Source: Candidatus Omnitrophota bacterium (lineage in GTDB: Bacteria > Omnitrophota > Gorgyraeia > Zapsychrales > Zapsychraceae). Taken from it: 61,476 nucleotides of DNA. The DNA lies in assembly GCA_016931055.1 (NCBI GenBank), contig JAFGFL010000058.1:1-61476 (forward strand), given 5' to 3'. The position numbers and the translations under genes are program-made. Positions 3,200 to 30,520 of the stretch are shown piece by piece; position 1 is the stretch's first letter, and the number at the start of each line of letters is the position of its first letter. The notes under the pieces were generated by a model. The model did no database searches. It was not told where the DNA came from and saw only the letters and a list, made by a program, of their open reading frames with translations.

Positions 3200-3274
3200 T
3201 TGATGGCGGCGTGAGTTAATAGTATAATCTTTTAGAAATACAGGGGATTGAATAGGAATAAGGAGTTTATCAAA

Positions 3275-9721: not shown

Positions 9722-10594
9722 ATGAATATTGAAAACAAAAGGCAGTTCGCCACAATCCTCTTGGCCGTCGGGCTTGGGCTGGTGGCAGCGATGCTGATGA
9801 GCAAGGTGGTCAGCGATAAGGTTGATCAACAGACAAAGATTATCGCGAAGGAATACCAGGGAAGAAGCGCCGCTTTGATCAAAGAAATGGATGAGACCAA
9901 GCAAACTTTGAAAAAATTGGCGAAAGACCATGCGGAACTTGCTAAACGGGTCGCGCAACAACCCAAAACGATTGTGCAGCAAACCGCCGCCCCCACTCCT
10001 GAGAAGCCAACCATTCAGGAGATGGCATTTTCTTTACGGACTCCGCCGGGCAAAAGGGCCATCACGATCAGCATCAATGCCCTTTCAGCGGTCGGCGGCC
10101 TCTTGAATCCCGGAGATTTTGTCGACATCATCGGGCATCTGGACCTTCCGGACGGGAATGATCAATCTTCTGCGAAGAAACAAACAGCAAAGGGAGAAGA
10201 AAAAGTCATAACCGTTTTGTTCCAGAATATCCAGGTATTGGCCGTCGGGACCAACTATAACCCGATGGGAGAGATCCCTCCGTACGAAACGCAGCAAAAG
10301 GCAAAGACGTTAAACGTGACATTGGCCGTAAGCCCTGAGGAGGCAGGCCTTTTGACTTTTGCCGAAGCGCACGGGGAGCTTCAACTGTCGTTGAGGTCGC
10401 CGGCAGAGACAGAAGAACGGGTGTTACAGCAAGTTGCTTCTTGGGACGCATTATCAGAATTTGTTTTGGAGCAGCAGGGGACAGATTTGAAGGTCCCCGT
10501 GAAAAAATCAACGATCGCACCGGGAGGCGAAGAAGAAGTAGGAGAAGAAACCAAACCATTTATCCAGATCTTCCGGGGAGGCAGGGAGCTATAA
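9722..10594 (+). CDS. cpaB: Flp pilus assembly protein CpaB/RcpC
   Basis: N-terminal TM helix. C-terminal RcpC/CpaB signature 'PGKRAITISINALSAVGGLLNPGDFVDIIGH...VLAVG...VTLAVSPEEAGLLTFAEAHGELQLSLR'. A coiled-coil region replaces the usual SAF domain. Confidence 0.75.
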   Translation: MNIENKRQFATILLAVGLGLVAAMLMSKVVSDKVDQQTKIIAKEYQGRSAALIKEMDETKQTLKKLAKDHAELAKRVAQQPKTIVQQTAAPTPEKPTIQEMAFSLRTPPGKRAITISINALSAVGGLLNPGDFVDIIGHLDLPDGNDQSSAKKQTAKGEEKVITVLFQNIQVLAVGTNYNPMGEIPPYETQQKAKTLNVTLAVSPEEAGLLTFAEAHGELQLSLRSPAETEERVLQQVASWDALSEFVLEQQGTDLKVPVKKSTIAPGGEEEVGEETKPFIQIFRGGREL

Positions 10595-14560: not shown

Positions 14561-14911
14561 TTGATAGCCATCACCAATACAACCAAGAATACGCTCATTG
14601 CCCGCAACGGGCGCTTGGCCGATACGTTCTTCTCCCGCATGATCGGCCTTCTTAACCGGCCTTGCCTCCCAAAGGACGAAGCCCTTATCATTACGTGCTG
14701 CCAATCGATTCATATGTTCTTCATGCGCTTTGCGATCGATGCCATTTTTGTAGACAAAAAGGATTGCGTGGTTGGCATTGTTAAAAGCATCAAACCATTC
14801 CGTTTAAGCCCAATTTTCTTTAAGGCAAGTTATGTCATCGAAGTCCCAGAAGGGGCTATTGTCCAATCTGAGACGTCTATCGGTGACAAAATCCAGGTAC
14901 AAAATAACTAA
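14561..14911 (+). CDS. DUF192 domain protein
   Basis: 116 aa with a TTG start. 'ADTFFSRMIGLLNR...IHMFFMRFAIDAIFVDKKDCVVGIV' fits the DUF192 pattern. Confidence 0.6.
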   Translation: MIAITNTTKNTLIARNGRLADTFFSRMIGLLNRPCLPKDEALIITCCQSIHMFFMRFAIDAIFVDKKDCVVGIVKSIKPFRLSPIFFKASYVIEVPEGAIVQSETSIGDKIQVQNN

Positions 14912-15095: not shown

Positions 15096-16991
15096 ATGGG
15101 CGTTATTCATAAACTCAAAAAAGATGTAGCTTCATTTATAATCACATTAAAGCAAAATAATCCCTCCATTGGGGTCCGCCAGCTTGCTTCATTAACGAGT
15201 GAACAATTCCACATACAAGTTTCCAAATCATCCGTAAACAATCTGCTAAAAAACAGCGGGATGAGCAGTTTGATAGGAAGAAGGCCGGGAAGCGTCGTAC
15301 GAGCAGAAAAATTCTCTATTCCGGAAGGAAAAAAAAGGCAGATTTCCAAGAGCCTGGAAGAAACAGGATTTATTAAGGAAGACGTCTCTTTGGCTGTTAA
15401 AAGGGAAGATGATCTGGATAAAAGGGAGCACAGAGAACAGCCGATAGCAGAGGAAAGCGCGGGAGGTCTATCGATCCCTGATTTGCCCATAAAGGAAAAA
15501 GTCCTTCCATTGGAAGGTGAGCCTATTAAGGAAAGACAAATTGTTAAAGAGAAGCCGTCGAAAAAAGAAATATTTGATGCCGAAAGATTTAAGGCTTTTG
15601 TTGAATCAGAACGCCGGAAGAAAAAGACGAATGGAATGCCGATTCCGGGAGGCTGCGGATTTATTTTCCTGAAAGCGGCGCAATGGGACATCTCAAGGCA
15701 TTCTTTGCCGGGGGAACTGATCAAAAAATATATCCGCGCTCCTGTTTCCCGGCATTTTGATGCTGTCAGCGACATGTTCCTGTTTTTTAAATTCCTGAGG
15801 GCCGAATCCATTGACCATTTTGCGGCGTACAGGGGCCATGGCCTGTGGGTATTTAACAATTTTTGCGCCTCTGACGGCAGTGAAGAAAAGGACCTGCTGG
15901 AGCTGCAGGAGCTGTTTCAATGGGAGAAAGCAATGAAAGCGGATCCGTCGGCGGAAAATCTTTTTATGGAATATGATAAGACCAAAGAACAAGCCTTCTT
16001 AGAGGTCAAAGGGTTTAAATTGCTGCTGGAAGATAAATCCGAACTGGCTATGGACGCCTCCATGGTCTCCTTCGAAAGCGGCGGCCGCATCCCGAGTTTT
16101 TCTTACAGCTCGTCTCCGGTCCAAAAGGCAATGGAGCGTTTATCGAATTGCCTGGTGAGCAATATCCAAAACGCTGTTTTCCAAAGGGCCCCGGGGGAGG
16201 ACAGGCTTGACAGGGCGTTTTATGATATGGCCGCTGTTTTCGAGAATGTTCCAGGAAAAAGGATCATTCGGGCAAGCGTTATCGATGAGCAGGATGAAGA
16301 AATCGCCGGGTTTTCAACCATTCCGTTTCAAAAAAGAAATTTTTTGATGGGAATCGGGCCGCAGCAAAAGGAATTCAGGGAATTGGCCGGGCAACAGAAG
16401 CAATCCGGGAAAGCCACTTTTTATCATGCTCAGACCGACAGGGTTTTCTATTACACAGAAGCTGAAACTGCCTTTTTGGGAAAACAGATCTATAGGGACA
16501 TAAAAGAAGCTAAGGCCGTCATGGTCTGGAAAGAGGGGGAAAATAATCCTTGTTGGGCCGTTTTGACCAATAACCGAAAGGGGGGCGGAAAGGATATCCT
16601 CAATACATATCTTTCACAGTGGCCATATTTGGGCGAAACCCTTAAAGAAGACCCTATTTTAATGCTGGATTCGGGCATAAAAGACCAAAATTTAGATAAA
16701 AAGAAAGAAAATTCAACGTTTGACATATTTGTCGATTTTGTTGAATCTCTGCACAGGTATTGTCAAAGATATTTCTTTCCAAAGGCTTACTGTAAAATTG
16801 ATATAACTCAATTAATTACAGGTATTTATAGTGTACCTGGCGCCTGTTGGGGATCGGCAGATTCTTTGAGGGTTTCATTGGATGTTGATAGGAATTCTGT
16901 CTATCGTAATGACCTTGAATATGCCGTCAAAAGGGTGAACGAACGGCATATTAGGGATTATTTGGACCGAAGGCTCTGGCTTGAAATCTGA
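15096..16991 (+). CDS. Hypothetical 631-aa protein with N-terminal HTH-like segment and Lys/Glu-rich linker
   Basis: Long ORF with an ATG start and its own promoter. The N-terminus 'SIGVRQLASLTSEQFHIQVSKSSVNNLLK' looks like a helix-turn-helix. aa ~70-180 are charged and low-complexity. The rest matches no family I recognise. Confidence 0.5.
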   Translation: MGVIHKLKKDVASFIITLKQNNPSIGVRQLASLTSEQFHIQVSKSSVNNLLKNSGMSSLIGRRPGSVVRAEKFSIPEGKKRQISKSLEETGFIKEDVSLAVKREDDLDKREHREQPIAEESAGGLSIPDLPIKEKVLPLEGEPIKERQIVKEKPSKKEIFDAERFKAFVESERRKKKTNGMPIPGGCGFIFLKAAQWDISRHSLPGELIKKYIRAPVSRHFDAVSDMFLFFKFLRAESIDHFAAYRGHGLWVFNNFCASDGSEEKDLLELQELFQWEKAMKADPSAENLFMEYDKTKEQAFLEVKGFKLLLEDKSELAMDASMVSFESGGRIPSFSYSSSPVQKAMERLSNCLVSNIQNAVFQRAPGEDRLDRAFYDMAAVFENVPGKRIIRASVIDEQDEEIAGFSTIPFQKRNFLMGIGPQQKEFRELAGQQKQSGKATFYHAQTDRVFYYTEAETAFLGKQIYRDIKEAKAVMVWKEGENNPCWAVLTNNRKGGGKDILNTYLSQWPYLGETLKEDPILMLDSGIKDQNLDKKKENSTFDIFVDFVESLHRYCQRYFFPKAYCKIDITQLITGIYSVPGACWGSADSLRVSLDVDRNSVYRNDLEYAVKRVNERHIRDYLDRRLWLEI

Positions 16992-17456: not shown

Positions 17457-17637
17457 GTTGTTCTTTTAAATGGCTAAATACGCCGAAAGGCGTTTTAATC
17501 CTTGGCTTGCTCGTTTAAGAGGCCGGGGATGCCGGCGGCCGAAAAGGCGCCGGCAATAAAGCCCTTTGGAATTCTGGCCTTACCAAGAAAGGTAAGGAAA
17601 GGGCAGGATTATTTGTGAGGCACGTAAGGTGGCCGCG

Positions 17638-17799
17638 ATGAGGCTAACAGGTAAATGGAATCATAAAGGTCAAAGTCTAATCGAATATGCCATGGTCGCG
17701 GCGATCGTTTCGGCAGCCATTATTGCCATGAGCACCTACGTGTACCGTTCGGTTCAGTCAACCCAGCAAATGATTCAAGAAGAATTCAGCAGTCATTAA
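17638..17799 (+). CDS. Flp-like pilin (53 aa; below the ORF-track size cutoff)
   Basis: Hand-translated: MRLTGKWNHKGQSLIEYAMVAAIVSAAIIAMSTYVYRSVQSTQQMIQEEFSSH*. It has the 'KGQSLIEY' prepilin motif plus a hydrophobic helix, with 'aaggtgg' upstream. Confidence 0.6.
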   Translation: MRLTGKWNHKGQSLIEYAMVAAIVSAAIIAMSTYVYRSVQSTQQMIQEEFSSH

Positions 17800-17933
17800 G
17801 TACCTTCAGCACGATTTTGTCAGCGCGGAAGTTATTTGTCCCAGGAGCAATCTTGGCCATTTAACCAGAGAGCGTGTCTGGCAAAGAAGTTTTGAAGGTA
17901 CTTTGAGCATAAAAATCTTAAGGAGGGAATACA

Positions 17934-18146
17934 ATGCTTAAAAGGAATATCATGTTAAGGCCTCAGAAGAAGAAAGGTCAAAGCACGGTTGAGTACATCA
18001 TCCTTGTTGCGGCGATCATCGGAGCGCTGATTATCTTCTTGCCGGGGACGTTTAAAACCGCATATAACGCCGCTTTAATGAGCGGTACCGATGGTATGGA
18101 GAACATGGCAAACCGGCTTGCTGAGTCCAGACCGTTGTCTCCGTAA
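17934..18146 (+). CDS. Flp-like pilin
   Basis: 'KKKGQSTVEYIILVAAIIGALIIF'. AAGGAGGG RBS. Confidence 0.7.
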   Translation: MLKRNIMLRPQKKKGQSTVEYIILVAAIIGALIIFLPGTFKTAYNAALMSGTDGMENMANRLAESRPLSP

Positions 18147-18181
18147 TTAAGCCTAATGATTAAAATCAGGAGGAAATATCA

Positions 18182-18547
18182 ATGTTTAGAAAATTGATGA
18201 AAAATAAGAAAGCGCAAAATACCGCCGAATATGCGATTCTCATATCGCTTGTTGTGGCCGGTATTATTGCCATGCAGACCTATGCTCAAAGAGCATTGCA
18301 GGCAAGGGTTCGCGACGCTGGGCAATACCTGAAGAGTGAAACAGAAATCCTAGGGTCAACGGTCCAGTACGAGCCTTATTACCTGGAAACGAATTATGAA
18401 GTTTTTCGTAATGAAAGTGATACACAGAGATTAGACAGCAATACGACCCGGCAAGAAACGGATTCAACAAGGACCCGGACACAGGATGGTTATCAGGTAT
18501 CTACTTATAACACAACAATGTACAACGCCCTTGTTAACGGCATCTAA
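18182..18547 (+). CDS. Pilin/pseudopilin-like protein
   Basis: 'KNKKAQNTAEYAILISLVVAGIIAMQTYAQRALQARVRDA'. AGGAGGA RBS. Confidence 0.65.
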   Translation: MFRKLMKNKKAQNTAEYAILISLVVAGIIAMQTYAQRALQARVRDAGQYLKSETEILGSTVQYEPYYLETNYEVFRNESDTQRLDSNTTRQETDSTRTRTQDGYQVSTYNTTMYNALVNGI

Positions 18548-18603
18548 TTTTTGCAGGAATAATCTTCTTCTTGTAAGGAGGTTAAACTTAGGAGGATAAA
18601 TCA

Positions 18604-18933
18604 ATGTTCAAGTATTTAAATAGAAAAAGACAAAAAGGGCAAAGCACCTTGGAGTATGCAGTCCTGATTATCATCATCATAGGCGCGCTTCTGTCCATCC
18701 AGGTGTATATCAAGCGTGGTGTTCAAGGCCGGCTGAAAAGCGCTACCGATGATATCGGGACGCAATTCTCTCCGGGGAATACCAACGTGGTCAAGATTAT
18801 GACGACCTCAAGCCAGTCTCGAGAGACATTCTTCAGCGGTGAAACCAAATCCACATTATTGGGCAATGAAGTCACCAGAGACTTAATGAACTCTGATATT
18901 ATGAACATCGAGCAGGAATACTGGGGCGGATAA
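18604..18933 (+). CDS. Pilin/pseudopilin-like protein
   Basis: 'RQKGQSTLEYAVLIIIIIGALLSIQVYIKRGVQGRLKSATDDIG'. AGGAGGA RBS. Confidence 0.7.
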   Translation: MFKYLNRKRQKGQSTLEYAVLIIIIIGALLSIQVYIKRGVQGRLKSATDDIGTQFSPGNTNVVKIMTTSSQSRETFFSGETKSTLLGNEVTRDLMNSDIMNIEQEYWGG

Positions 18934-18954
18934 CCGCAGGCAGGTCGTTAATAT

Positions 18955-19008
18955 AAAAAACATGGCTTACTTGGGGAAGTATGTCCTTCAGGTAAGCCAT
19001 GTTTTTTT
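18955..19008 (+). terminator. Strong rho-independent terminator inside the pilin cluster
   Basis: 12-bp stem AACATGGCTTAC/GTAAGCCATGTT, flanked by an A-run on the 5' side and a T7 run on the 3' side. It begins 22 nt after the stop at 18933. Confidence 0.8.
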
Positions 19009-19142
19009 GGAAGGATTTGCGTCTTCTATTCGGCCATTTTTCATAAGTTTTGGGCTTTTCACATATAAATATGAAATCAAGGATGTTATTCATTGCCAAA
19101 AAGTGTATAATGAAAGAAAAATTTATATTAGGGTAAACACGC

Positions 19143-19532
19143 ATGCTCAGGGCTCTTAAAAACAGGAATGCGCAGGCTGTGATGGGGGAATATGTCGTCG
19201 TTATTTTTTTGGTGATGGCCGTTCTGATGGCCATGACGATGTATTTTAAAAGGGCCCTTCAGGCCAGGATCCACGATGCCCGGGACTACATGGTCACCGA
19301 AGTCAGGGCGCGCAGTGCGGGGTCGTTCAACGGGGATTTGTACAGGGAATACGAGCCGTATTACACCAACACGCTATCGAATGTCGCAAGGGCTATAGAG
19401 TTTGAAACAAGGCTCTTGCCGTCAGGCTCGTCGGGGATATTCCAGAAGATTTTTAATGAAATATTGAGCGTGTCGGTGAACAGCGAAACAGCGCCGCCGC
19501 GTGATTATAATTTGACAACACCGACTCGTTAG
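19143..19532 (+). CDS. Pilin/pseudopilin-like protein
   Basis: 'KNRNAQAVMGEYVVVIFLVMAVLMAMTMYFKRALQARIHDA'. Confidence 0.6.
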   Translation: MLRALKNRNAQAVMGEYVVVIFLVMAVLMAMTMYFKRALQARIHDARDYMVTEVRARSAGSFNGDLYREYEPYYTNTLSNVARAIEFETRLLPSGSSGIFQKIFNEILSVSVNSETAPPRDYNLTTPTR

Positions 19533-19599
19533 GCCGTTGATGGGCGGTTTCAGGGAAGAAGCGGTAAGATGGAAGGGGGCAGTGAGAAAAGAGGGGGCT

Positions 19600-19941
19600 A
19601 TGTTACGGCGGGCATTAAAAGGGAACGCGAAAGCGCAGGTCTTCCTGGAATACACGATCATTATCGGCGTCATTGTCACGGTCTTAATCGCCATGAACAC
19701 GATGATCAAAAGGGGCATCCAGGGGATGGTCAAATCCGTGAGCGACCAAATAGGCGCCCAGGCCAACGCTGAGCAAAAGTTCGATGAGGGCGGCCATCTG
19801 GAGGCGCAATATTCGACATCGCGTACTACGGCGGATCAAACAACGACGGAGCTTATGGGCATTACAAACTATATATACGATGACATCGCCGCATACGCCT
19901 CCAATACGGTTACGAATTTAGGGTTTATGGAAGGGGATTAA
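19600..19941 (+). CDS. Pilin/pseudopilin-like protein
   Basis: The track ORF starts at TTG 19537. ATG 19600 after 'gagggggc' gives 'MLRRALKGNAKAQVFLEYTIIIGVIVTVLIAMNTMIKRGIQGMVKSVSDQIG'. Confidence 0.65.
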   Translation: MLRRALKGNAKAQVFLEYTIIIGVIVTVLIAMNTMIKRGIQGMVKSVSDQIGAQANAEQKFDEGGHLEAQYSTSRTTADQTTTELMGITNYIYDDIAAYASNTVTNLGFMEGD

Positions 19942-19996
19942 AAGGCCGGTAATCCCGTCCTAAAACAGGACGCAAAAAAACAACAGGAGCGGCAAA

Positions 19997-20314
19997 ATGA
20001 TATTTCGCGGCAATAAAACTGGGCAGACAGCGGTCGAATATACGGTCCTGCTGATTCTTTGCATAGGGGCGTTTATCGGGATCCAGAATTACGCGAAGCG
20101 CGGGATCCAGGGGCGGTGGAAGTCCCACATCGATGAGATGGGCGACCAATACGACCCAAGGACCGCGGACACGAATCTCCGGCAGACCCTGACTTCCAGC
20201 ACGAACACGACGATCATCGTCATGAACACGCAGGGAGGGTACTGGACCCGGCGGACGGATGAATCGGCTTCAACAGAACAAAAGACGGGATATACTGCGG
20301 TCGGGTCGTATTAA
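19997..20314 (+). CDS. Pilin/pseudopilin-like protein
   Basis: 'NKTGQTAVEYTVLLILCIGAFIGIQNYAKRGIQGRWKSHIDEMGDQY'. AGGAG RBS. Confidence 0.7.
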   Translation: MIFRGNKTGQTAVEYTVLLILCIGAFIGIQNYAKRGIQGRWKSHIDEMGDQYDPRTADTNLRQTLTSSTNTTIIVMNTQGGYWTRRTDESASTEQKTGYTAVGSY

Positions 20315-20345
20315 CGGGAGAACCGCCCGATCATTGACAGGGGAC

Positions 20346-22133
20346 ATGGACATCCTTAAAAACAAAACAGCGCAAACGGCTGTTGAACTTGCCGTCTTCG
20401 GTTCGATATTGATTTTTGTCATGGGGTCTATCATCAAGACGGTCGTCAGCCAATCCCAGCAGCACGGCGCTCTTTTGAGGGCCACCCGGATGGCCCTGAC
20501 GTTATCCCATTTGACGACAGAAGAAGAGAAAATGGCCGGACGGAATTCGGCGTCGGTCTTGATCGTCGAGGACCGGCTGACGGCAGCCTCTTCGAAATAC
20601 GGCGCGATTGACCGGATCCCTTTTATGACCCAGGGTTCCGGGACGCACAGCCGGCATTTGTTTATGCCCGTTGATTTCGGAGATACCGACGATTTGCCTT
20701 TGTTCGATCTGTTCGTGAACGGAAAGCATTTTGTTTTCAGCACGGCGGGTTTTAAATATGTGAATTTAGCGGCGAACTGCGAAGACGTGCCACCTTGCCC
20801 TGCCGATTGTCCAATTTGTAATGTTGGAACTCCATGTTATTGTCGGGGACAGCCCGAAGCACCCATAGACGGGATCCCTGTTGAGGGGATCCCGGCCGGG
20901 GCTGATTATTGGGAGCCCGATTGCCTTGAGAGCACCACGGTCACAACACAGACCAATTCCTGCGCCGATACCAGCGCTGTCTTGCCCGATGTAGACCCTC
21001 CTTACGAATGCCCTGACCCCATCTGTTTAGACTGCTCGCCGGTATCGACACAAACCTATCAAGATATTACAACGCAGACCCAGATGATCGGGTGCGCCAA
21101 ACTGTACACGGTTGTTGAAAACCATCCGCTTATTCCGGATTGGTGTGATGGCGGTTCGAGGCCATGTCCGGCGACTTGTCCAACAGGGCCGGGGGTGCCG
21201 TGCAATTTATCAGTTGACGAGAGGTTTAATTTGGACCGGGCCAATGCGACAGACCCGGATGGGCTGGACGGCCTTCCGGGCTCGGTCACAGTCCCTGTGG
21301 GTGAACGGCCGGGATTTTCGTGGCAGTGGTTTCTTGTCGCGCCTGTGGACGAGACCATTGTGCCGCCGTTGAATTATGATGAGGCGAGTTTAATGCAAAG
21401 CCCTATCCTCAACATGTGGACCACCCACACGACAAGGGTCGCTGCGGGTGAAGGGATTGTTCTTCCCGGAGGGGAAGCGGAGGCGAAAAATATCAGCCTG
21501 GACGCCGATTATGACCTTAAGCTCGAATACATCATGGCGAACGTCGAAGAGAATAACGTGCAGCCGAACATTGTTGACGACAACGGAGTCATTATCCGCA
21601 TTGGCGTCATGGACCCGCAGTTAGGTGACATTGATATGACCTACGATGACAGCGACAAGTTAAAAGGGATTGAACCGTTCGGGTTCACGAGAGACTTAAA
21701 GGTTTACACGTTTGTCCGGGGCAATGTGCCTGATGGCGGGACATATTTCGAGATTGACGAAGGGCAATTGTTCGCGGCAGACACGCGGCAATTTATCCGG
21801 ACGGCCTCCAAGAAAGACCAGGTCGACCTTATCGAAAGGGTGTTCCGGTTAAGCCGTAATACTGGAGGGTATTGCCTTCCTGACGGCACCAAACGTTCTG
21901 GCGCAGAATTCCGCGAATTTTACGGGATTTTAAACAACAGCGAACCCAACCCCGTTGAGGCCTGCGAGAATGTGACCGGGGCTTGTTTCAACGGCGCGAA
22001 CATCAACCTGACATGCATGGATACGACTACCGATACCATTTTCATAAGAAGCCGGATCCAGGACCTTCACGGGCGCAAATGGGTTACGGAGACAGGGTCT
22101 GATCCGTATGTTAATTTTGACATTAATAATTAG
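20346..22133 (+). CDS. Large Cys-rich TadE/TadF-like pseudopilin (595 aa from ATG 20346)
   Basis: The track ORF starts at 20259 and overlaps the preceding gene. ATG 20346 gives 'MDILKNKTAQTAVELAVFGSILIFVMGSII'. A Cys-rich central part follows, with 'PCPADCPIC' and 'PCPATCPTG' motifs. Confidence 0.65.
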   Translation: MDILKNKTAQTAVELAVFGSILIFVMGSIIKTVVSQSQQHGALLRATRMALTLSHLTTEEEKMAGRNSASVLIVEDRLTAASSKYGAIDRIPFMTQGSGTHSRHLFMPVDFGDTDDLPLFDLFVNGKHFVFSTAGFKYVNLAANCEDVPPCPADCPICNVGTPCYCRGQPEAPIDGIPVEGIPAGADYWEPDCLESTTVTTQTNSCADTSAVLPDVDPPYECPDPICLDCSPVSTQTYQDITTQTQMIGCAKLYTVVENHPLIPDWCDGGSRPCPATCPTGPGVPCNLSVDERFNLDRANATDPDGLDGLPGSVTVPVGERPGFSWQWFLVAPVDETIVPPLNYDEASLMQSPILNMWTTHTTRVAAGEGIVLPGGEAEAKNISLDADYDLKLEYIMANVEENNVQPNIVDDNGVIIRIGVMDPQLGDIDMTYDDSDKLKGIEPFGFTRDLKVYTFVRGNVPDGGTYFEIDEGQLFAADTRQFIRTASKKDQVDLIERVFRLSRNTGGYCLPDGTKRSGAEFREFYGILNNSEPNPVEACENVTGACFNGANINLTCMDTTTDTIFIRSRIQDLHGRKWVTETGSDPYVNFDINN

Positions 22134-22145
22134 AGAAGGGTTAAC

Positions 22146-22345
22146 GGTGAATGGCTGATAGTGAATGGTGAATGGAAATTGGGGATACAAGCGGGAGTAA
22201 CGAAATGCTCAAAGGATTAAAAAGAAAAGAAAAGGAAAAAGCAGAAAACGGGACAAATGCATTTAACAATTTCCGATCAATGCCCCACGATTCGATAAAA
22301 ACAAACAACGATTTACCATTAACTATTCACCATTCACCATTCACC
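22146..22345. mobile_element. MITE-like element with ~30-bp imperfect terminal inverted repeats
   Basis: The left arm 'ggtgaatggctgatagtgaatggtgaatgg' (22146-22175) is the imperfect reverse complement of the right arm 'ccattaactattcaccattcaccattcacc' (22316-22345). Confidence 0.55.
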
Positions 22346-22591
22346 GACAAAGCCCAGGTCCTGCTTGAATTCACTTTTTGCATGGTCATTATACTGCTTA
22401 TGCTCTACGGAATCACGAAAGTCTTGACTTGGACCGGGCGCGAATATGTCGGCCGGAGCAGGGCTCATGACAACGTTCTTTATCAAAATATTGACAGGGA
22501 CTACCAGATCATCGGCGAAGGCCCCGCGAAGCAGATTGACCCGTATTATTATACGCCCGTTAAGTTGAACGCGATTTGGGGGGAGAAGTGA
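22280..22591 (+). CDS. TadE-like pseudopilin (start uncertain: 22172, 22205 or 22280)
   Basis: 'DKAQVLLEFTFCMVIILLMLYGITKVL' pilin-like motif. All candidate ATGs lie inside the MITE-like element at 22146-22345. Confidence 0.5.
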   Translation: MPHDSIKTNNDLPLTIHHSPFTDKAQVLLEFTFCMVIILLMLYGITKVLTWTGREYVGRSRAHDNVLYQNIDRDYQIIGEGPAKQIDPYYYTPVKLNAIWGEK

Positions 22592-22601
22592 GGAAAACAA
22601 T

Positions 22602-22875
22602 GTGAACGTAAGACGTAAGAAGTAAGACGTGAGACGTGAGACGTGGTTGAATTGAAAAACAGAATTAAAATTTTAAATAATAAACACCAAAAAACAATAG
22701 ATTCCAATGACTACATGTTCAATGACCGAGACCAGAGATGAAAGCAAAGAGGATTGTGACTAATACTTTTATAAAGGTTTGGTAATTTTGGATTTGGAAT
22801 TTTGAAATTTCCGATTGTTTAAAACGGTGTTTCAAACTGGACGTCTTACGTTTCACGTCTTACATCTTACGTGCG
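22602..22875. mobile_element. MITE-like element with ~40-bp terminal inverted repeats built from GTAAGACGT units
   Basis: Left arm 'gtgaacgtaagacgtaagaagtaagacgtgagacgtgagacgtgg'. Right arm 'ggacgtcttacgtttcacgtcttacatcttacgtgcg'. The core between them is AT-rich and non-coding. Confidence 0.55.
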
Positions 22876-22887
22876 TGTGGAGAACCG

Positions 22888-25800
22888 ATGATAAAACTTT
22901 TGAATAACCTGTTCAGGACAAAGCTGAAAAGAGCATTAGGCTCTTCCGCCGGCCAAGTGGCGATCGTCTTGATTTTGGTCATTGCCGTGGCGCTTATTTT
23001 CTACGCCGTTTCCCTTAATTTAGGGTGGTTTACCCAATCCAGGATTCTTGTGACGATGGCGTCCAATACCAGCGCGAGCTTGCTGGCGTCGGACATGGCC
23101 AGCTACGGACAAATGCTTTCGGAATCAAGCCTTCAAGGAGAGAAGAAAAAATGCGCGTGGACAGGGGTTATGGCCGCAATCGTAGCAGTTATAGTAATTA
23201 TTGCCATGGTTATTGCCTCGATTTATACCGGAGGCACAGCTTCGTGGATTTTTATTCATTTGCTTAAATCGGTAACTAATATTGTGTTAGGCCTTGTGTT
23301 TGCGGCAGCTTCGATTGTTTTACAAGCCACAGTTATTCAGCCGGGGATTTCGAATGCCTGGAACTCAATTGTAAGCGAATTATTGTCGCAAAGGAACCAG
23401 TTCACGGAAGGGGCGATTCAGAACGCTTTGGGCAAAGCTGTGACAGACCCTGTTTTGGTCCCGGATGTCAACGACCAGGACCAGGACAGGGTATGGGTCC
23501 TGCCAACTAAAGACGCTGTCGAAAATTCGCCTTATGCTGATGAGGTCAGCCGGTTTTCCATGTATTACGCGTGGAGGCTTCAGCAAATTAAGAAATCGGG
23601 GGCGGAGGACATCTCTCAATTCATCAACGCGTTAAGGGAGCTTCTTTATGAGGGGACTGACGGTTGGGGGCTTCATGACCCTATGCCGGGCGATAATTGC
23701 CGCGGCAGGGCGGAATGCCATCCGTGCTGCACGCCTTATTCGTACACTTCCCTTGATGGGGAAACGTATGAAGGATTGCGGTCGGAGAGATGTGAACATT
23801 ATACAGATGATGCGTATTGGGAACAGCAGTGCATCCCGGCGAGCCCGTATAAGTATCATCCAAGCTATCCTTTTCTTTTTGACTTGTATTTCGAGAATCC
23901 CTACAACGCATTTTTGTCCTTTCGCGAGCTGGTTGGGGTTGATGACGAACATCCAAAATATTGGAAAGACTTGTTCGATCCTAACTCAGAGCCGGTGCCG
24001 CCGCGGCCGCCGCAAAACTCGCACGCGTTGTCTAATCCTGTTTCAGACGAGGGTTTCCGCATGGAAGACGCGACGGGTTATTATGCCCCGCCGAACCCGG
24101 TTCAAACAGACCCCTTAAAAGGCATATTCCCGTTCTTCTGGAAAATGGCGGACTGGGGAGTGGACTTGTTGCCGGTTCAGAATGCGGTTGAGAACGGAAC
24201 GCCTCTTCCAAGGGACGGGCAGCCGCTCGATAAAACCGACAGGGAATGCCATTGGTGCGATATAAACGATCCAAGCGGAAACTGCCCTCTTTGTGAAGGG
24301 TTGGCTCCCCATCCGCATCCGCCGGAAATCCCGCAGCTCACTTTGCCCAATACGGATACCACATGGCTGATTTACAACACGTCCCATGTTGTCGACGGGG
24401 CTTTCAATGACAGGGACCTGCGCTATTTCGCCCCCGCTGTTATACAGCCGTTTCCTCCGACGGGGGTGGACAGGGTGACCCTTCCGGAGAATATTGTTGC
24501 CGCCGATAATATCTGCGCCGAGGACACTCTGTATCCCGTTGCCGCTTCCGAAGGCTTTTGGAAACGGGGAGCGGACCGCTTCTGCAAGGAAGAGGCGCCT
24601 TATTTTCTGGAATGCCCTAAATGCACGGATGTTGATTGCCACTGCAGCGACGGTGACCCGACAAAATTTTACAGCGATGTTATTGACAAGATTATTTATT
24701 CGCTGCCTGATTTCTTTGAATGGGCCAAGATCCTGCTGGCTAAGGCGGCTGATATGGAATCGCTTTACGAGGACTTTCCAAACTGGTATCCGGAGGCGGC
24801 GCTCTGGATAGAGCCTCTGGCTCCGGCAGCCCCCGCGCCTGACGCGAGCGTCCCTTGTTTCATATGCGGGAACCTCCAGATGCCGGACGGGACGCCGATT
24901 CCTGAGGGGATATTGTGGATATGGCTTAAAGAAATTACCGAAATGAGGGACAGGATTTTAGGGTGGGTCTTCAATCATAATTGGGTGACTGATATCGACG
25001 AAGGATGGGGCGGTGATGCGTGCACTGACGTATGGTGCCTTCCAGACGGCTCCCTTGCATGTCCGGAGGTCCCCGATTCAGAAGGGGAAGAGGAAGTTTT
25101 TGACAGCAATTATAACGGATTTCAAGGGGATATGGAAGATGTTGTCGGCTGCCTGAATTACAATACCAACGGATATGACCATGTGGCGGCAGAGAAGTTT
25201 AAATACTGCCGTGACAACTGCGATGCTGCTAATTGTGAGGTGGGCGTGACCCTCCCTGAATTTCATTTAGACGGGCTTACGCCTTACGAATTCCCTGACC
25301 CGGCAGTGACGCCGTTTGATTGCGTTGACTGGGGAGGAAGTCCGGGGGACAACCTATGGTATGACGCTGTCGTTAAAAACATACATTCTGCGGTTAATCC
25401 TCCTTCGATCAAGCAGGGTAACGATTACAGGTATGCAAAATGCGCGGCGAACTGCACTCTGGAATATTGTTTCAGATTGCCGCGGTCCATGGTGCCGTAT
25501 GCATCGGACCATCTCTACCGGCCTAATAAGTTAAATCCAGATGTGCCGCCGGGGAGCGTTTCGCTTGTTCCCCTTTGGGGCTTCCAAGCCCCTGTGATTT
25601 ACGGGGACGGGTTCAGGGATTGGCTGGATTTAACAGCCTTAAACGATTGCCTCACAAATTGTAATCCAAAGACTTGTAGAGTGGGAGTCAGGCTGCCTGT
25701 ACATATCCACAATACCGCGGAAGATTATTTTTACCCCGGGGTTGCTCCAGATATGCTGAATGATTGTCTTGACCCGGGCTGGGGAATGCCTGGAGGGAAC

Positions 25801-27234
25801 ATGTGGTCCGATGCTCTGGTTCATAACAAAAATCGTGTGAAATTTATTCGGGGCCGGATCGATGAGGAAACGGCGCTGCCTATTATGATTTCGTGTTTTA
25901 CAGATTGTAGCGGGGCTGCAGATGTCAATAAGAATGGTACGGAAGATTGCCAGGAGTCCCTAACCTTGCCTTACGATTGGAGTATTACAACGGGGGGCAT
26001 CCCTGATTGTGGATTAGATAAGCATCCTGTTAATACTATTCAAGACCCTCCATTGATTGATTTTTATGACCGGATTGTTGAAAATATTTTGATTGCCGGA
26101 GGGACAGGATGGGATGGGGTAGGGAGTTGCGACATGAGTTATACGCCGGGCTACGTGCTGGCTCTTGACCCTCAGGTCGATCCGCCGGACGGGTGGCTTT
26201 ACTCAACGCTGCAAAGTTCCCTTGAGGCGCAAAATCAAGTGGCAAAGTTCGAATTGCGCCGGGATTTCCTGAAAAACCGGTTGATAGAGGCCAACAACAT
26301 CCTGGATGTTTTTGGCAGGGATTTAGACGGCAACGGCACGGCTGATACGGGGATCATTTATAAACTCGAAGAATTTCTGGAGCTTGGGGAAGACATCCCT
26401 TGCGCGGACCTGTTTCTCTGTCCGGCGGCATGTTCTGGTGATTGTGGCCCCGCCTCGACGGCAACATATGACGGCCCTACAGGGAAACTGATTAGGGCCA
26501 GGATTAACTATAAGTCGGGTGAAGATGGGCTGCCGTACCAGGCTGTTTACGGGTGGAGAGATGAGGACGAGATTCTCCCCGGAGGGATTACGAAACGCGG
26601 TAAATGGCATATTGTTAAGACTGAGGCGCGTGTTCCGGGCATGTGCGATGAGAGTTGTTCAGCTGACCAGGAGGGCCCCGATCCCAGATGGCCGAGGATC
26701 GAGACCTACACCAAGAATTGGGGGACAAGGCGGTGCTACGAGTTGTTCAATACGGAGGGGAGCGTGAAATTCCGGACGACCCGCTGGGACGAAGACAAGT
26801 CGTCAAAGTCTTGCGCGGGGCTTTCCCCTTGTCCGGCGGCATGTTCCGATTGCGGGCCGGGCTCGATGTCCACATACAAACCGCTTTTAACATTCCCGAA
26901 CGGCACGCCGATATGGTCTTTTAAAAGCGGCCATCCGTTAAGGCCCATTGATCCGGTCCACAATCCCGATGATCTCGACGCGTTATGCGCGCAAAGCATG
27001 ATCTTGGAAATACCCGGGACGAATACGGGCACAACGGCTTACGGCGGCGCGTTCATAATGAATAAGTATGTTCCGTGGGACGATCCGGAAGACGAGCCCA
27101 ATGGCTCATGCTGGAACCTGGCGCATGAGCTTCTGGCGGCAGGGGTGGTCAACGAGACATGCGCGCGATATTATTGGCACGAAGGGCTTAATCAGGGTAT
27201 GGGCATTGAATTCGTCCCGTGCAAGGAATTTTAA
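22888..27234 (+). CDS. Giant Cys-rich TadG-like pseudopilin / pilus-associated protein (1,448 aa)
   Basis: The N-terminus 'LGSSAGQVAIVLILVIAVALIFYAVSLNLG...LLASDMASYG' resembles the TadG N-terminal region. More hydrophobic helices follow at aa ~90-165, then ~1,250 aa with dozens of Cys and internal repeats. Confidence 0.65.
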   Translation: MIKLLNNLFRTKLKRALGSSAGQVAIVLILVIAVALIFYAVSLNLGWFTQSRILVTMASNTSASLLASDMASYGQMLSESSLQGEKKKCAWTGVMAAIVAVIVIIAMVIASIYTGGTASWIFIHLLKSVTNIVLGLVFAAASIVLQATVIQPGISNAWNSIVSELLSQRNQFTEGAIQNALGKAVTDPVLVPDVNDQDQDRVWVLPTKDAVENSPYADEVSRFSMYYAWRLQQIKKSGAEDISQFINALRELLYEGTDGWGLHDPMPGDNCRGRAECHPCCTPYSYTSLDGETYEGLRSERCEHYTDDAYWEQQCIPASPYKYHPSYPFLFDLYFENPYNAFLSFRELVGVDDEHPKYWKDLFDPNSEPVPPRPPQNSHALSNPVSDEGFRMEDATGYYAPPNPVQTDPLKGIFPFFWKMADWGVDLLPVQNAVENGTPLPRDGQPLDKTDRECHWCDINDPSGNCPLCEGLAPHPHPPEIPQLTLPNTDTTWLIYNTSHVVDGAFNDRDLRYFAPAVIQPFPPTGVDRVTLPENIVAADNICAEDTLYPVAASEGFWKRGADRFCKEEAPYFLECPKCTDVDCHCSDGDPTKFYSDVIDKIIYSLPDFFEWAKILLAKAADMESLYEDFPNWYPEAALWIEPLAPAAPAPDASVPCFICGNLQMPDGTPIPEGILWIWLKEITEMRDRILGWVFNHNWVTDIDEGWGGDACTDVWCLPDGSLACPEVPDSEGEEEVFDSNYNGFQGDMEDVVGCLNYNTNGYDHVAAEKFKYCRDNCDAANCEVGVTLPEFHLDGLTPYEFPDPAVTPFDCVDWGGSPGDNLWYDAVVKNIHSAVNPPSIKQGNDYRYAKCAANCTLEYCFRLPRSMVPYASDHLYRPNKLNPDVPPGSVSLVPLWGFQAPVIYGDGFRDWLDLTALNDCLTNCNPKTCRVGVRLPVHIHNTAEDYFYPGVAPDMLNDCLDPGWGMPGGNMWSDALVHNKNRVKFIRGRIDEETALPIMISCFTDCSGAADVNKNGTEDCQESLTLPYDWSITTGGIPDCGLDKHPVNTIQDPPLIDFYDRIVENILIAGGTGWDGVGSCDMSYTPGYVLALDPQVDPPDGWLYSTLQSSLEAQNQVAKFELRRDFLKNRLIEANNILDVFGRDLDGNGTADTGIIYKLEEFLELGEDIPCADLFLCPAACSGDCGPASTATYDGPTGKLIRARINYKSGEDGLPYQAVYGWRDEDEILPGGITKRGKWHIVKTEARVPGMCDESCSADQEGPDPRWPRIETYTKNWGTRRCYELFNTEGSVKFRTTRWDEDKSSKSCAGLSPCPAACSDCGPGSMSTYKPLLTFPNGTPIWSFKSGHPLRPIDPVHNPDDLDALCAQSMILEIPGTNTGTTAYGGAFIMNKYVPWDDPEDEPNGSCWNLAHELLAAGVVNETCARYYWHEGLNQGMGIEFVPCKEF

Positions 27235-27245
27235 ATGTTACGTGA

Positions 27246-27273
27246 GTAGGGGCGTATTGCAATACGCCCCTAC
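27246..27273. repeat. GTAGGGGC...GCCCCTAC palindromic (REP-like) hairpin
   Basis: Perfect 28-nt palindrome 'gtaggggcgtattgcaatacgcccctac' between the 1,448-aa gene and the next pilin gene. Confidence 0.8.
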
Positions 27274-27294
27274 ATGATGGGAAGGAAAAAATTA

Positions 27295-27642
27295 ATGTTA
27301 CGGCGGAACCGAAAAAACTTTGGGCAATCGGTAATGGAATTTGCGGCGCTCATTATATTTATCCTGGCGGTCTTTATCGTCTTTCAAAAATACATCGTGA
27401 GGGGATTCACCGGAAGGTGGAAAAGCATCGGGGACGGGTTGGGCGAAGGCAGGATTTACGATCCAAAGAAGACCATCGAATGCGCGGCGAGCAAGTTTTT
27501 CGATGATTGGCCGAATCCGATATGGTACAACCGGACGTGTTTTGAGAAAGAATGCGAAGACGAGTGTCTGCGCTCGACCAGGGAAAGCGGCGCGTGCGCG
27601 GGTTGCTTAACAGGCACTTGTTCCAGCCCGTATTGTGATTAA
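27295..27642 (+). CDS. Pilin-like protein with Cys-rich C-terminus
   Basis: The track start is 27274. ATG 27295 after 'ggaagga' gives 'MLRRNRKNFGQSVMEFAALIIFILAVFIVFQKYIVRGFTGRWKSIGDGLG'. The C-terminal 55 aa contain 9 Cys. Confidence 0.65.
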   Translation: MLRRNRKNFGQSVMEFAALIIFILAVFIVFQKYIVRGFTGRWKSIGDGLGEGRIYDPKKTIECAASKFFDDWPNPIWYNRTCFEKECEDECLRSTRESGACAGCLTGTCSSPYCD

Positions 27643-27791: not shown

Positions 27792-28649
27792 ATGATGGTC
27801 TTGGCTTTATTCTTGTGTTTTGTCACCGTGGCCCTGATCGGGTATGTGGTCGCGCCGATGGTCTACAGCCGGGCGCTGATCGAAAGCGGGAGACAGCAGC
27901 AGCGGCTGTCCAACAAGATGGAGCAGCTGATGTCGCGCCGGGAAGCGAACAAAATCAGCCGCCTGTTTATCGTCGCGCCATTGGTCCTCGCCGGCGGTTT
28001 TTATCTGGTTTTCCCGGAAGGCCTGCGCCTGTTCGGGGTCATTTTCGGGGTCGTCGTCGGGTTGGTCTTCCCCGGCATCTACGTCCAGGCTCTTACCAAG
28101 AGGACCAAAGAGCAGTTCAACAACCAGTTGATCGATGCGCTGATGATCATGTCGAGTTCGTTTCGGGGGGGCTTAAGCCTGGTGCAGGCGCTTGAGGCGG
28201 TTGTTGACGAGATGCCCGATCCGATCAACAAGGAATTCGGCATTGTCCTTGGGGAGAACAAGATGGGGGTTTCCCTGGAAGAGGCGCTGAACCACCTTTA
28301 TACCCGCATGGCCTCGCCGGCCCTGCAGCAGATGATCACGGCGATCCTCCTGGCGCGGGAGACCGGCGGGAACCTGCCCGTTATTTTCAACCGTATCGTC
28401 AACAATATCCGCGAGAGCAAGAAGATACAGCAGAACCTGGACACCTTGACGATCCAGGGGAAGATCCAGGGGGTCGTCATGAGCATCCTGCCGGTCGCCT
28501 TCGCGTTTCTGCTTTATTCGTCGAACCGGAGGGTTTTTGATAATATGCTGGTCTCCGAGCTCGGCAGGACGCTTTTGATTTACGCGGTGATTTCCGAGAC
28601 GATCGGGGCGTTCTTGATTTGGAAGATCAGCTCGTTTAAGGACTTTTAA
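27792..28649 (+). CDS. tadB: TadB (type II secretion system F-family platform protein)
   Basis: 285 aa. N-terminal TM helix and T2SSF-like core ('LIDALMIMSSSFRGGLSLVQALE', 'ARETGGNL'), followed by C-terminal TM helices. Confidence 0.75.
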   Translation: MMVLALFLCFVTVALIGYVVAPMVYSRALIESGRQQQRLSNKMEQLMSRREANKISRLFIVAPLVLAGGFYLVFPEGLRLFGVIFGVVVGLVFPGIYVQALTKRTKEQFNNQLIDALMIMSSSFRGGLSLVQALEAVVDEMPDPINKEFGIVLGENKMGVSLEEALNHLYTRMASPALQQMITAILLARETGGNLPVIFNRIVNNIRESKKIQQNLDTLTIQGKIQGVVMSILPVAFAFLLYSSNRRVFDNMLVSELGRTLLIYAVISETIGAFLIWKISSFKDF

Positions 28650-28893: not shown

Positions 28894-29772
28894 ATGATTA
28901 CCTTACTTTTCCTCTGCGCTTATTTCTGCGCTTTCAGTTTTGTCCTCGGGTTTATGCCCATGGAATGGGAAAGGCGCCCGACGCTGGAGGCCCTGGGGAT
29001 GTCCCCCCTCGCGAAGAAAAAGAAAAGGAAGATATTTTCTCTCCTCTTTGCGGCGTCCGTGATCAATAGGCCCCTCTGCAAAGGGCCCGTCCGTGCGCGG
29101 CTCATCAAGGATCTGTCGGTCGCGCGCGTCAATTTAACGCCGGAAGAGTTCTTCCTGGTCAAGGAAATAGGGGTCTTGGTCATCCTCGTGTTGACTTACC
29201 CGTCCGTGAGCCCCGAATATATATTCGGCTGGATCGCGATGGGGTTTGTCGGAGGCTACATGGTCCCCGAGTTCTGGCTGAAGGCGAGGATCAAGAAGAT
29301 CAAGAATACCATCGTCAAGGAGCTTCCGGACGCGATAGACCTCCTGGGGCTTTGCGTGAACGCGGGGCTTGACTTCATGCTTTCCCTAAAATGGGTGGTT
29401 GAGAAATCCGCGCCCTCCGTGATGATTGATGAGCTCAATACGATCCTGCAGGAGATCAATGTCGGGAAGACCCGCCGCGATGCCATCAAGGACCTGGCGG
29501 GCCGTTATGAGCTGCCGGACCTGTCCACCTTTTCGCGGACGCTGATCCAGGCGGACAAAATGGGGACTTCCGTGACCGAGGCCTTGAACATCCTTTCGGA
29601 GGATATGCGGATCTCGCGCTACCGCCGCGGCGAGCAGATGGCCCTGAAGGCCCCGATGAAAATGCTGGTCCCTCTTCTTGCGTTCATCTTTCCCGTTGTC
29701 GGCATCCTTGTCGCCGGCCCTATCCTGATCGATTTCATGGAGAACAATCCGTTCAAACAAGTCGCGAGGTAA
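28894..29772 (+). CDS. tadC: TadC (type II secretion system F-family platform protein)
   Basis: 292 aa. T2SSF-like core ('LPDAIDLLGLCVNAGLDFMLSL', 'LIQADKMGTSVTEAL') with flanking TM helices. Confidence 0.75.
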   Translation: MITLLFLCAYFCAFSFVLGFMPMEWERRPTLEALGMSPLAKKKKRKIFSLLFAASVINRPLCKGPVRARLIKDLSVARVNLTPEEFFLVKEIGVLVILVLTYPSVSPEYIFGWIAMGFVGGYMVPEFWLKARIKKIKNTIVKELPDAIDLLGLCVNAGLDFMLSLKWVVEKSAPSVMIDELNTILQEINVGKTRRDAIKDLAGRYELPDLSTFSRTLIQADKMGTSVTEALNILSEDMRISRYRRGEQMALKAPMKMLVPLLAFIFPVVGILVAGPILIDFMENNPFKQVAR

Positions 29773-29998: not shown

Positions 29999-30520
29999 TT
30001 ATTTGGTATACTCTGCGTATGAGGAAAATACCCAATCTTCCGGAGAAGAGACAAGATTTGCTGTCACAGGATTTAGGTGAATATATCTGGTCAAGTGCAG
30101 GAGCTGTTCATCCGTTTTCACTAAAACGTTCTTAAACCTTCCCTCCCAAAGTGGTCCCTTCCTTGTGTGTTTAATATTAAAATATCTGGCATAACTGTTC
30201 TGGACATTTGCCATAAACCGTGTGATCCCGTTGTCTGCTGCCTGCTTGACAATAAGATGAAAATGGGTCGGCATAAGACAGTAGGCGATCAGGTTGACTG
30301 GTTTTATTGATGGCTGCTGCCTTGCTTTGTTGGAAAGACAGAGGGTATTTGCGTGAATATGATCGGAAAACTTTCCGGGAGTTAAGGAGCTTTGATAATG
30401 GCGAAGGGTTTGTACCATATGGGAATATTCATGCGAGTTACTGAAAATAACATAGCCGGCAATGCTACGGTTGAACACATGATAAATTTGATCTGTATGT
30501 AAGCTATCTCTTCTTGGCAT
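29999..30520 (-). mobile_element. REP-associated tyrosine transposase (RAYT) / IS200-like Y1 transposase
   Basis: 173 aa. HUH motif 'MPTHFHLIV' and catalytic Tyr context 'LTRYIHLNPV'. Palindromic repeats on both sides. Confidence 0.8.

Follow-up and report, generated by a model that had tools for sequence, protein, structure and literature searches.

Two large, cysteine-rich pilin-like proteins of an Omnitrophota Tad locus as possible subunits of the pilus tip

Introduction

What could two very large, cysteine-rich proteins with pilin-like N-termini contribute to a pilus locus that lies upstream of a giant gene? This question is raised by a stretch of 61,476 nucleotides (nt) from a Candidatus Omnitrophota bacterium (assembly GCA_016931055.1, contig JAFGFL010000058.1, positions 1 to 61,476), hereafter called the window, which on the basis of Pfam matches and gene order is a Tad/Flp (type IVc) pilus locus. 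Omnitrophota are widespread, uncultivated and ultra-small bacteria that are thought to live as predators or parasites. The two proteins in question are protein A (595 amino acids (aa), 20346-22133), which we read as a large modular minor pilin of the TadE/F type, and protein B (1448 aa, 22888-27234), which we read as a giant, TadG-like minor-pilin-like protein. Each is followed by a small pilin-like protein, p139 (22172-22591) behind A and the Cys-rich p122 (27274-27642) behind B. With the exception of one transposase gene, all features of the window described here are encoded on the + strand. A first-pass annotation made from the letters of the window had presented A and B as oversized pseudopilin-like proteins whose Cys-rich regions would suit a tip adhesin. 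The evidence assembled here leans, if only slightly, towards a set of four minor pilins (A, p139, B and p122) that forms the tip or priming complex of the Tad pilus, with A and B as its large members.

Results

Both A and B start like pilins, as the first-pass annotation had recognized: each has a class III leader followed by a hydrophobic helix. They belong to a run of eleven proteins (17629-27642) that all share a [G/A]↓Q motif, where the arrow marks the predicted cleavage site, and a hydrophobic helix behind it. The four members of the proposed set fall into two kinds in regard to the glutamate at position 5 after the cleavage site, since Glu5 is present in A, p139 and p122 and absent in B. 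Protein A carries a canonical class III leader with Glu5 (MDILKNKTA↓QTAVE, which reads on as KNKTA↓QTAVELAVFGSILIFVMGSII). The leader is short and basic with a predicted cleavage site of the G/A kind, a hydrophobic alpha1N helix comes after it, and the Glu at +5 is kept in 76 of the 77 members of the A family. The N-terminal motif of p139 is KA↓QVLLEF, and that of p122 is FG↓QSVME. The true start of p139 is probably internal to the annotated frame, and this protein gave a weak TadE match (E 0.36). In B, the sequence SSAG↓QVAIV provides a G↓Q site and a hydrophobic helix without Glu5. This is a trait of the whole family, in which the +5 residue is I or V in 124/142 relatives and Glu in a single one (1/142). 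Sub-threshold matches to PF13400 (TadE/G-like) were obtained for 6 of 32 N-termini of the B family (best E 0.0021), and the N-terminus of B itself matched just Flp1_like (E 0.03) and Arch_flagellin (E 0.14).

The genes for A and B are firmly embedded in their locus. The order TadZA-DUF192-p631-Flps-A-p139-B-p122-TadB-TadC-giant is the same in 18 other loci, which come from one contig of 3.35 Mb and 17 GTDB species genomes. Of the 16 loci with both A and B, 15 have an orthologue of p139 between the two genes, and an orthologue of p122 lies directly 3' of B in every locus that reaches past B. A giant gene follows in every related contig that extends several kb beyond TadC, with the exception of L006; it was found 3' of TadC in L001, L005, L009-L011, L013 and L016-L018. 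Across these loci, A and B are 27-50% identical, compared with 57-74% for TadB and TadC. Protein A has 84 homologues of about 500-640 aa. For B, a word-seeded search returned 44 close homologues, and a full profile search returned 808 cluster representatives at E <= 1e-3, 386 of them at E <= 1e-30. The relatives of B are about 1100-1700 aa long and most of the best-scoring representatives match over the whole length. All homologues that carry names are from Candidatus Omnitrophica or Omnitrophota.

One relative of B deviates from this picture. P0037 (L019, 145-4278) joins about 515 aa of B-like sequence to a GH20 hexosaminidase, and it adjoins RND efflux genes instead of p122 and TadB. We rejected this fusion as a hint to function, since its contig runs on into the efflux genes and is probably chimeric or rearranged.

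A locus of this kind has been described before. In the parts of the two reports on which we draw, West-Roberts et al. describe a conserved 'type II secretion-like' locus upstream of giant genes of Omnitrophota, including the conservation of a SurA-like peptidyl-prolyl isomerase (PPIase) (bioRxiv 10.1101/2023.11.21.568195), and Seymour et al. describe a Tad complex of Velamenicoccia (PMC10066038). The window matches what these parts describe: it has a Rotamase_2 PPIase, RcpC, a GspD-like secretin and GspE- and GspF-like proteins, many small genes with class III signal peptides and, behind these, a giant gene whose product has a C39 peptidase at its N-terminus. Judged from sequence and gene order, A and B are conserved core genes of this locus, which the first-pass annotation had missed. 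Two large Cys-rich proteins, their leaders, the Glu5 dichotomy and the repeat modules are not described in those parts of the two reports.

The high Cys content that had first drawn attention to A and B is real and specific. A has 20 Cys (3.4%) and B has 54 (3.7%), in comparison to none in the secretin and RcpC. Set against A, B and p122, the giant open reading frame (ORF) is almost free of Cys, with 4 among 9,775 aa (0.04%). With 8 Cys in 122 aa, p122 is the sole other Cys-rich neighbour. The first-pass annotation had named conservation among homologues as a check, and the cysteines proved to be strongly conserved in both families. In a 150-member alignment of the B family, the Cys columns outside the repeat array and inserts are mostly at least 90% Cys among the sequences that occupy them. 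Examples are C271 (144/146), C717 (149/149) and C1408, C1425 and C1445 (149/149 each). Cys89 is conserved in 141/146, and Cys1253, 1257, 1283, 1367, 1408, 1425 and 1445 reach at least 95% among members with a residue at these positions. Wherever a sequence has a residue at these positions, the four C-terminal cysteines of A are kept without exception.

We judged the pairing of these cysteines from the parity of their number and from their co-occurrence. Cys counts are even in 59 of 63 full-length relatives of A and in 33 of 41 relatives of B, and Cys712 and Cys725 of B are gained or lost jointly (phi 0.74). This is the pattern that paired disulfides predict. Of the two possibilities raised in the first-pass annotation, disulfide-stabilised or metal-binding domains, the even parity favours paired cysteines, and those of A and B would then form disulfides. 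CxxC motifs occur six times in B, including CHWC-x8-CPLC and CPKC-x4-CHC, twice in A and once in p122. No CxxCH motif was found in A, B or p122, and haem binding as in a multihaem c-type cytochrome was rejected for this reason.

A and B are built from clearly separable regions. In A, conservation, alignment occupancy and secondary structure delimit a conserved, Cys-free pilin-like module at aa 1-145 (20346-20780). The AlphaFold2 (AF2) model of A has a predicted local distance difference test (pLDDT) score of 84.6 and a predicted template modelling (pTM) score of 0.82. It contains a helix of 57 residues (aa 2-58) and strands at aa 68-78, 90-100 and 119-144, which is consistent with a pilin module that ends near aa 145, and the first Cys of A falls exactly where this module ends. 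The following region (aa 145-290, 20778-21215) is rich in indels and holds 16 Cys along with a PCPADC and a PCPATC module; its alignment occupancy is low, yet Cys is conserved in the occupied columns. Further downstream, aa 386-430 (21501-21635) carry the acidic motif D386-x-D388-x-D390-x3-E394, D423, G427-D428-x-D430. Residues D386, D388, D390, E394 and D423 are invariant in 84/84 family members, G427 and D428 are present in 83/84 and D430 in 79/84. We regard this motif as a candidate Ca2+ site that may bind the metal. By eye, the DxDxDxxxE pattern looks like a Ca2+ loop of the DxDxDG or PilY1 kind.

In B, the leader and hydrophobic helix take up aa 1-49 (22888-23034), and a hydropathy scan revealed a second hydrophobic stretch at aa 89-152 (23152-23343). 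This stretch of about 60 aa offers room for a helical hairpin, the conserved Cys89 lies ahead of it, and 133/142 relatives of B keep a hydrophobic span further on that covers 40 aa or more. A Cys-rich domain follows at aa 165-760 (23380-25167) that is conserved family-wide (44/44 homologues) and carries the sequence SFRExLGxDDEH plus the CxxC motifs CHPCC, CHWC, CPKC and CFIC. Repeat statistics place four CX3CX4C...LP units at aa 774-1028 (25207-25971), and a conserved, beta-rich C-terminal domain occupies aa 1218-1443 (26539-27216). The AF2 model of B, which covers aa 250-1448 (pLDDT 71.4, pTM 0.70), shows the strands of this last domain with pLDDT mostly of 65-90.

The first-pass annotation had recognized no family for the Cys-rich regions, and in the searches that we ran A and B likewise stayed without a match to any described family or fold. 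At threshold, neither Pfam nor NCBIfam gave a hit for A, B, p139 or p122. Among the 84 members of the A family, none had a Pfam hit (TadE, PF07811, 0/84), and no match to TadE or any pilin model was seen at E <= 0.1. Neither vWA nor any other Pfam domain was detected in A, in B or in the five longest relatives of B, which are without inserted known domains. Searches of PDB sequences with both family profiles gave 0 matches at E <= 1. Foldseek searches of PDB with the models of A and B gave no match at E <= 0.001 and no pilin (best E for A 0.6), and the model of B found no match at E <= 0.001 in BFVD. Two candidate identities were dropped on these grounds: a PilY1/PilC tip adhesin, for whose beta-propeller there was no Pfam or Foldseek match, and a likeness to GspK/PilX by sequence or fold, as there was no PDB profile match and no Foldseek match at E <= 0.001. 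When the two family profiles were compared with each other by hhalign, only the leader motif aligned (17 columns, probability 9.7%), so that outside the leader the two proteins are not paralogues.

Parts of the Cys-rich regions are modular and vary between relatives. The short motifs that the first-pass annotation had listed for A are present, PCPADCPIC at 20793-20819 and PCPATCPTG at 21162-21188. Those of B, CPAACSGDCGPASTATY at 26419-26469 and CPAACSDCGPGSMSTY at 26830-26877, lie 3-4 nt away from the positions first given. The identical 17-mer tgtccggcggcatgttc occurs exactly twice, at 26419 and 26830, and is part of a 37-nt repeat with 81% identity. In B, these sequences belong to two copies of a CPAAC module (26399-26469 and 26810-26877), which are segments occupied in merely 3-4 of the 44 close homologues; for the second copy, relatives have the same module at another site. 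More generally, a mini-module of about 25 aa with the pattern C-x4-5-PCPA[AED]C-x1-3-C-x3-S-x3-[YF] appears at differing positions in 16/84 relatives of A and 8/44 relatives of B. It is found, for example, at about aa 291-297 in P0013, P0015 and P0037, the last of which thus carries it at a site other than B.

The duplication of about 60 aa that had been proposed for B consists of unit u1 (aa 774-831, 25207-25380) and unit u2 (aa 921-980, 25648-25827), both located to within a few bases of where they had first been placed. Their local alignment score of 108 was reached by 0/2000 shuffles (26.4 +/- 4.8). The Smith-Waterman algorithm with shuffling was needed to detect this repeat, as a BLASTP self-comparison of B missed it. 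The weaker copies that had been put forward fared differently: u3, CAANCTLEYCFRLP (aa 852-865, 25441-25482), is marginally significant against u2 (1/2000 shuffles), whereas u4, CFTDCSGAAD...CQESLTLP (25894-25971), is not significant on its own. Relatives have a canonical CX3CX4C..MP unit near the position that corresponds to u4, for example CFDNCSVANCSVMP in P0007. The columns of u3 are occupied in 42/44 homologues of B and those of u1 in just 9-11/44. By this measure, u3 (F-x2-C-x3-C-x4-C-x2-LPRS) is the ancestral, family-wide unit and u1 a recent extra copy. In the B family as a whole, the copy number of the CX3CX4C unit ranges from 0 to 11. A large-database search with the repeat region (25195-25842) as query gave no match at all, the B family itself included. 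As judged from alignment occupancy, neither the CPAxC motifs nor the first repeat copy are hallmarks of the families; both are insertions specific to certain lineages, a point that the first-pass annotation had missed. A 20-nt stretch on the + strand is 95% identical between A (21000-21019, PYECPDP) and B (25282-25301, PYEFPDP); it is too short to interpret and may be another shared mini-motif.

Upstream of the pilin genes, the window encodes the SurA-like PPIase (Rotamase_2 + SurA_N, 8698-9657) directly 5' of RcpC/CpaB (9722-10594), a secretin with a TonB_C tail (10598-12250), the TadZ-TadA fusion ATPase (12357-14537), a DUF192 protein (14561-14911) and p631, a protein of 631 aa without assigned function (15096-16991). 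RcpC/CpaB, the secretin and the fusion ATPase were identified by Pfam matches. The PPIase could plausibly act in the periplasm as a chaperone, either of A and B, which are rich in Pro (7-8%), or of the giant protein. The C-terminal TonB_C domain of the secretin matched with E 1.3e-14, and the secretin of L001 is built alike. TadZ (ParA/MinD-like) and TadA (T2SSE ATPase) are joined in one protein of 726 aa, an atypical fusion that is conserved in all related loci. p631 has no domain and just a weak match to a transposase-type helix-turn-helix at its N-terminus; it always lies between DUF192 and the Flp genes, and its identity amounts to 23-45% in 13 of the 18 related loci. About 5 kb 5' of the Tad locus, a second traffic ATPase (T2SSE, 3248-4645, +) bears a PilZ (c-di-GMP-binding) domain at its N-terminus.

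Seven small Flp-type pilin genes with the common motif [GA]↓Q..xEY precede A (17629-20314; individually 17629-17799, 17934-18146, 18182-18547, 18604-18933, 19143-19532, 19600-19941 and 19997-20314). Among these small neighbours, a Flp_Fap match reached E 2.8e-6 and a Class_IIIsignal match 25.9 bits, which is above the gathering score. Their products fall into two size classes (56-70 aa and 105-129 aa), are all Cys-poor and represent an unusually big pilin repertoire within one tad locus.

Downstream of p122 lie the platform proteins TadB (27792-28649, T2SSF match 2.1e-16) and TadC (28894-29772, T2SSF match 5.8e-14), an IS200-like Y1 transposase gene on the - strand (29999-30520, Y1_Tnp E 5e-8) and a stretch of low G+C content (0.40) at 30-32 kb with only small ORFs. 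The giant ORF starts at the ATG at 32152 and stays open to 61476, past the end of the window; its product has at least 9,775 aa, with a Peptidase_C39 domain at aa 202-327 and a TPR-S/MAP3K_TRAF_bd-like stretch about 6,600-6,900 aa in. The orthologous giant product of L001, the 3.35-Mb contig, has 60,566 aa. An Rfam scan of the whole window gave no match, and hence no riboswitch was seen upstream of the pilin genes or the giant gene.

Discussion

Tip complexes of type IV filaments are capped by the minor pilin that lacks Glu5 (PMC10191384). By analogy, the most economical reading of the locus would be that A, p139, B and p122 act as TadE/F/G-type minor pilins that prime the polymerization of Flp, with B as the Glu5-less cap. 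A, p139 and p122 have a presumably cleavable class III leader with Glu5, and the G↓Q site of B without Glu5 would be the hallmark of the capping subunit. The four proteins would be inserted into the inner membrane, where their hydrophobic N-terminal helices could bring them together, on the TadB/TadC platform, as a priming complex. The TadZ-TadA ATPase would then polymerize Flp subunits under this complex and drive it out via the RcpC conduit and the secretin. As a result, the distal end of the pilus would carry the large domains of A and B, which are acidic and rich in Pro and Cys and presumably locked by disulfides between paired cysteines. The DxDxDxxxE domain of A and the N- and C-terminal domains of B could serve as a conserved scaffold. 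The variable number of CX3CX4C units and the wandering CPAxC mini-modules would provide a fast-evolving surface, presumably for contact with host or prey.

Tips with TadE/F/G-type subunits have been described for other Tad pili. In Myxococcus xanthus, prey recognition and the efficiency of killing are determined by the KilL/M/N (TadE/F/G) tips, whose large KilN has a domain of unknown fold (PMC12075869). Models place CpaJ/K/L of Caulobacter at the tip of the pilus (PMC13170226), and TadG of Bdellovibrio has been called a tip protein and is required for prey invasion (bioRxiv 10.64898/2026.07.08.737194). By comparison with the tip complexes of TadG, CpaL and KilN, the tip-adhesin role suggested in the first-pass annotation is plausible for A and B. 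They share with TadE/F/G tips the position within a tad locus, adjoining Flp, TadB and TadC genes, as well as the class III leader and the hydrophobic N-terminal helix. Similar to KilN, one large subunit has extra domains that lack a counterpart in PDB, and similar to Myxococcus and Bdellovibrio, the lineage is considered predatory or host-dependent. A TadZ-TadA fusion also occurs in tad locus 1 of Bdellovibrio bacteriovorus, whose tad loci have no TadV (bioRxiv 10.64898/2026.07.08.737194), and the locus described here likewise combines the fusion with the lack of a TadV gene.

On the other hand, several features set A and B apart from TadE/F/G. Both are large for minor pilins and larger than typical TadE/F/G-type proteins, and B is several-fold larger than typical GspK-type proteins. 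With 3.4-3.7% Cys, they stand out in a locus that is otherwise nearly Cys-free. The set has four pilin-like genes instead of three, and these lie between the Flp genes and tadB and not after tadD. Neither protein has a Pfam TadE or Tad match at threshold, B has a conserved additional hydrophobic hairpin, and both are without a vWA domain, which CpaL has. In being the biggest of a four-member minor-pilin set and the one without Glu5, B resembles GspK/PilK(PilX) (PMC10191384); it differs from these proteins by the lack of a sequence or fold match, by its extra hydrophobic helices and by being part of a Tad-type system rather than a type II secretion system (T2SS) or a type IVa pilus. The architecture of a pilin module with grafted modules that are displayed on the filament is also known from the modular type IV pilins PilB and PilC of Streptococcus sanguinis (PMC10191384). 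Unlike in PilB and PilC, the grafts of A and B are of no known adhesin family (no vWA, no lectin) but novel Cys-rich domains with repeat expansion. Minor-pilin subunits at the Tad tip are thus a known concept; new here are the unusual size, the Cys richness, the fold without match and the extra hydrophobic helices in B.

Several observations weigh against a tip complex. Neither a prepilin peptidase (Peptidase_A24-like, of the TadV/CpaA type) nor a Dsb-type oxidoreductase was found within the window, and many Omnitrophota are anaerobes. TadE was matched by none of the 84 members of the A family, PF13400 was reached only below threshold in the B family, and the structural searches of PDB and BFVD described above returned neither a pilin nor another fold. 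The first 249 residues of B, with its leader and second hydrophobic stretch, are outside the AF2 model. For a placement at the tip, this second stretch would need to exit the membrane, and we know of no tip pilin that has been reported with such a hairpin. The six CxxC motifs of B leave room for metal sites, and a review assigns TadG to a cytoplasmic-membrane sub-complex and not to the tip (PMC10191384).

The last point bears on the main alternative, which we consider doubtful but worth serious attention. B, with three hydrophobic helices and no Glu5, and perhaps A could remain inner-membrane proteins and form part of a short pseudopilus or alignment scaffold that, similar to a T2SS, aids the export or docking of the giant protein. 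This explanation draws on the extra hairpin of B, on the strict coupling of the locus to the giant gene and on the older assignment of TadG to the membrane sub-complex. It would also agree with the description of the locus as T2SS-like upstream of giant genes in the part of the report of West-Roberts et al. used here (10.1101/2023.11.21.568195), and with the contacts that the tip minor pseudopilins of T2SS make with secreted substrates. Still, the seven Flp genes, the TadZ-TadA fusion, RcpC and the secretin are the signature of a true Tad pilus, A has a canonical leader with Glu5, and A and B evolve much faster than the core of the machine, as exposed parts would. Moreover, the giant protein has its own N-terminal C39 peptidase domain, and this domain family points to export by an ABC transporter or a type-I-like system rather than a T2SS. 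A further reading, which we regard as unlikely, makes the complex more than an adhesive cap: A, p139, B and p122 might physically couple the Tad machine to the giant protein as a new class of tip/effector system specific to Omnitrophota, in which the Glu5-less B with its three hydrophobic helices would nucleate the filament alone and the Cys-rich modules of A and B would dock the nearly Cys-free giant protein or help to deploy it onto host or prey cells.

Two further explanations concern the cysteines and the integrity of the genes. The Cys clusters could be metal or redox sites (Zn knuckles, Fe-S or redox-active CxxC) with a role in sensing or electron transfer. We consider such a role very unlikely and a minor rival, which would be compatible with the other readings. 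The CxxC motifs of B, A and p122 invite this idea, and the even parity would also fit a gain or loss of whole CxxC pairs together. However, CxxCH haem motifs are lacking, Cys466, which a CxxC...CxxC site would require, is present in just 12/150 relatives, and nothing matches among known metal-binding families or folds. Since the domains come after a class III leader, they are predicted to be extracytoplasmic, where disulfides are the usual fate of Cys. Finally, A and B could be products of annotation or of assembly, smaller genes joined by a frameshift or a chimeric contig, and chimeric contigs do occur, as P0037 with the B-like N-terminus (aa 1-515) fused to a GH20 hydrolase illustrates. The chance of this is practically nil, and for this window an artefact is excluded. 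Both frames are intact without internal stops, dozens of independent assemblies, among them the 3.35-Mb contig, provide homologues that are collinear over the full length, and the models are confident (pTM 0.82 and 0.70 for A and B). The concern about fused genes that had accompanied the first-pass annotation is thereby settled, and A and B are real.

The Tad locus and the adjoining giant gene are the main genomic clues to host attack by Omnitrophota. Within this locus, A and B are the largest unannotated parts and the likeliest to contact the target cell. Their families comprise hundreds of sequence clusters without known domain or fold, and domain databases would gain from them two new protein families as well as two small Cys-rich modules. 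If A and B are indeed TadE/F/G-type tip subunits, this identity would give a handle for experiments on Velamenicoccus enrichments, and the recently proposed idea of adaptable Tad tips in predators would reach a deep-branching phylum.

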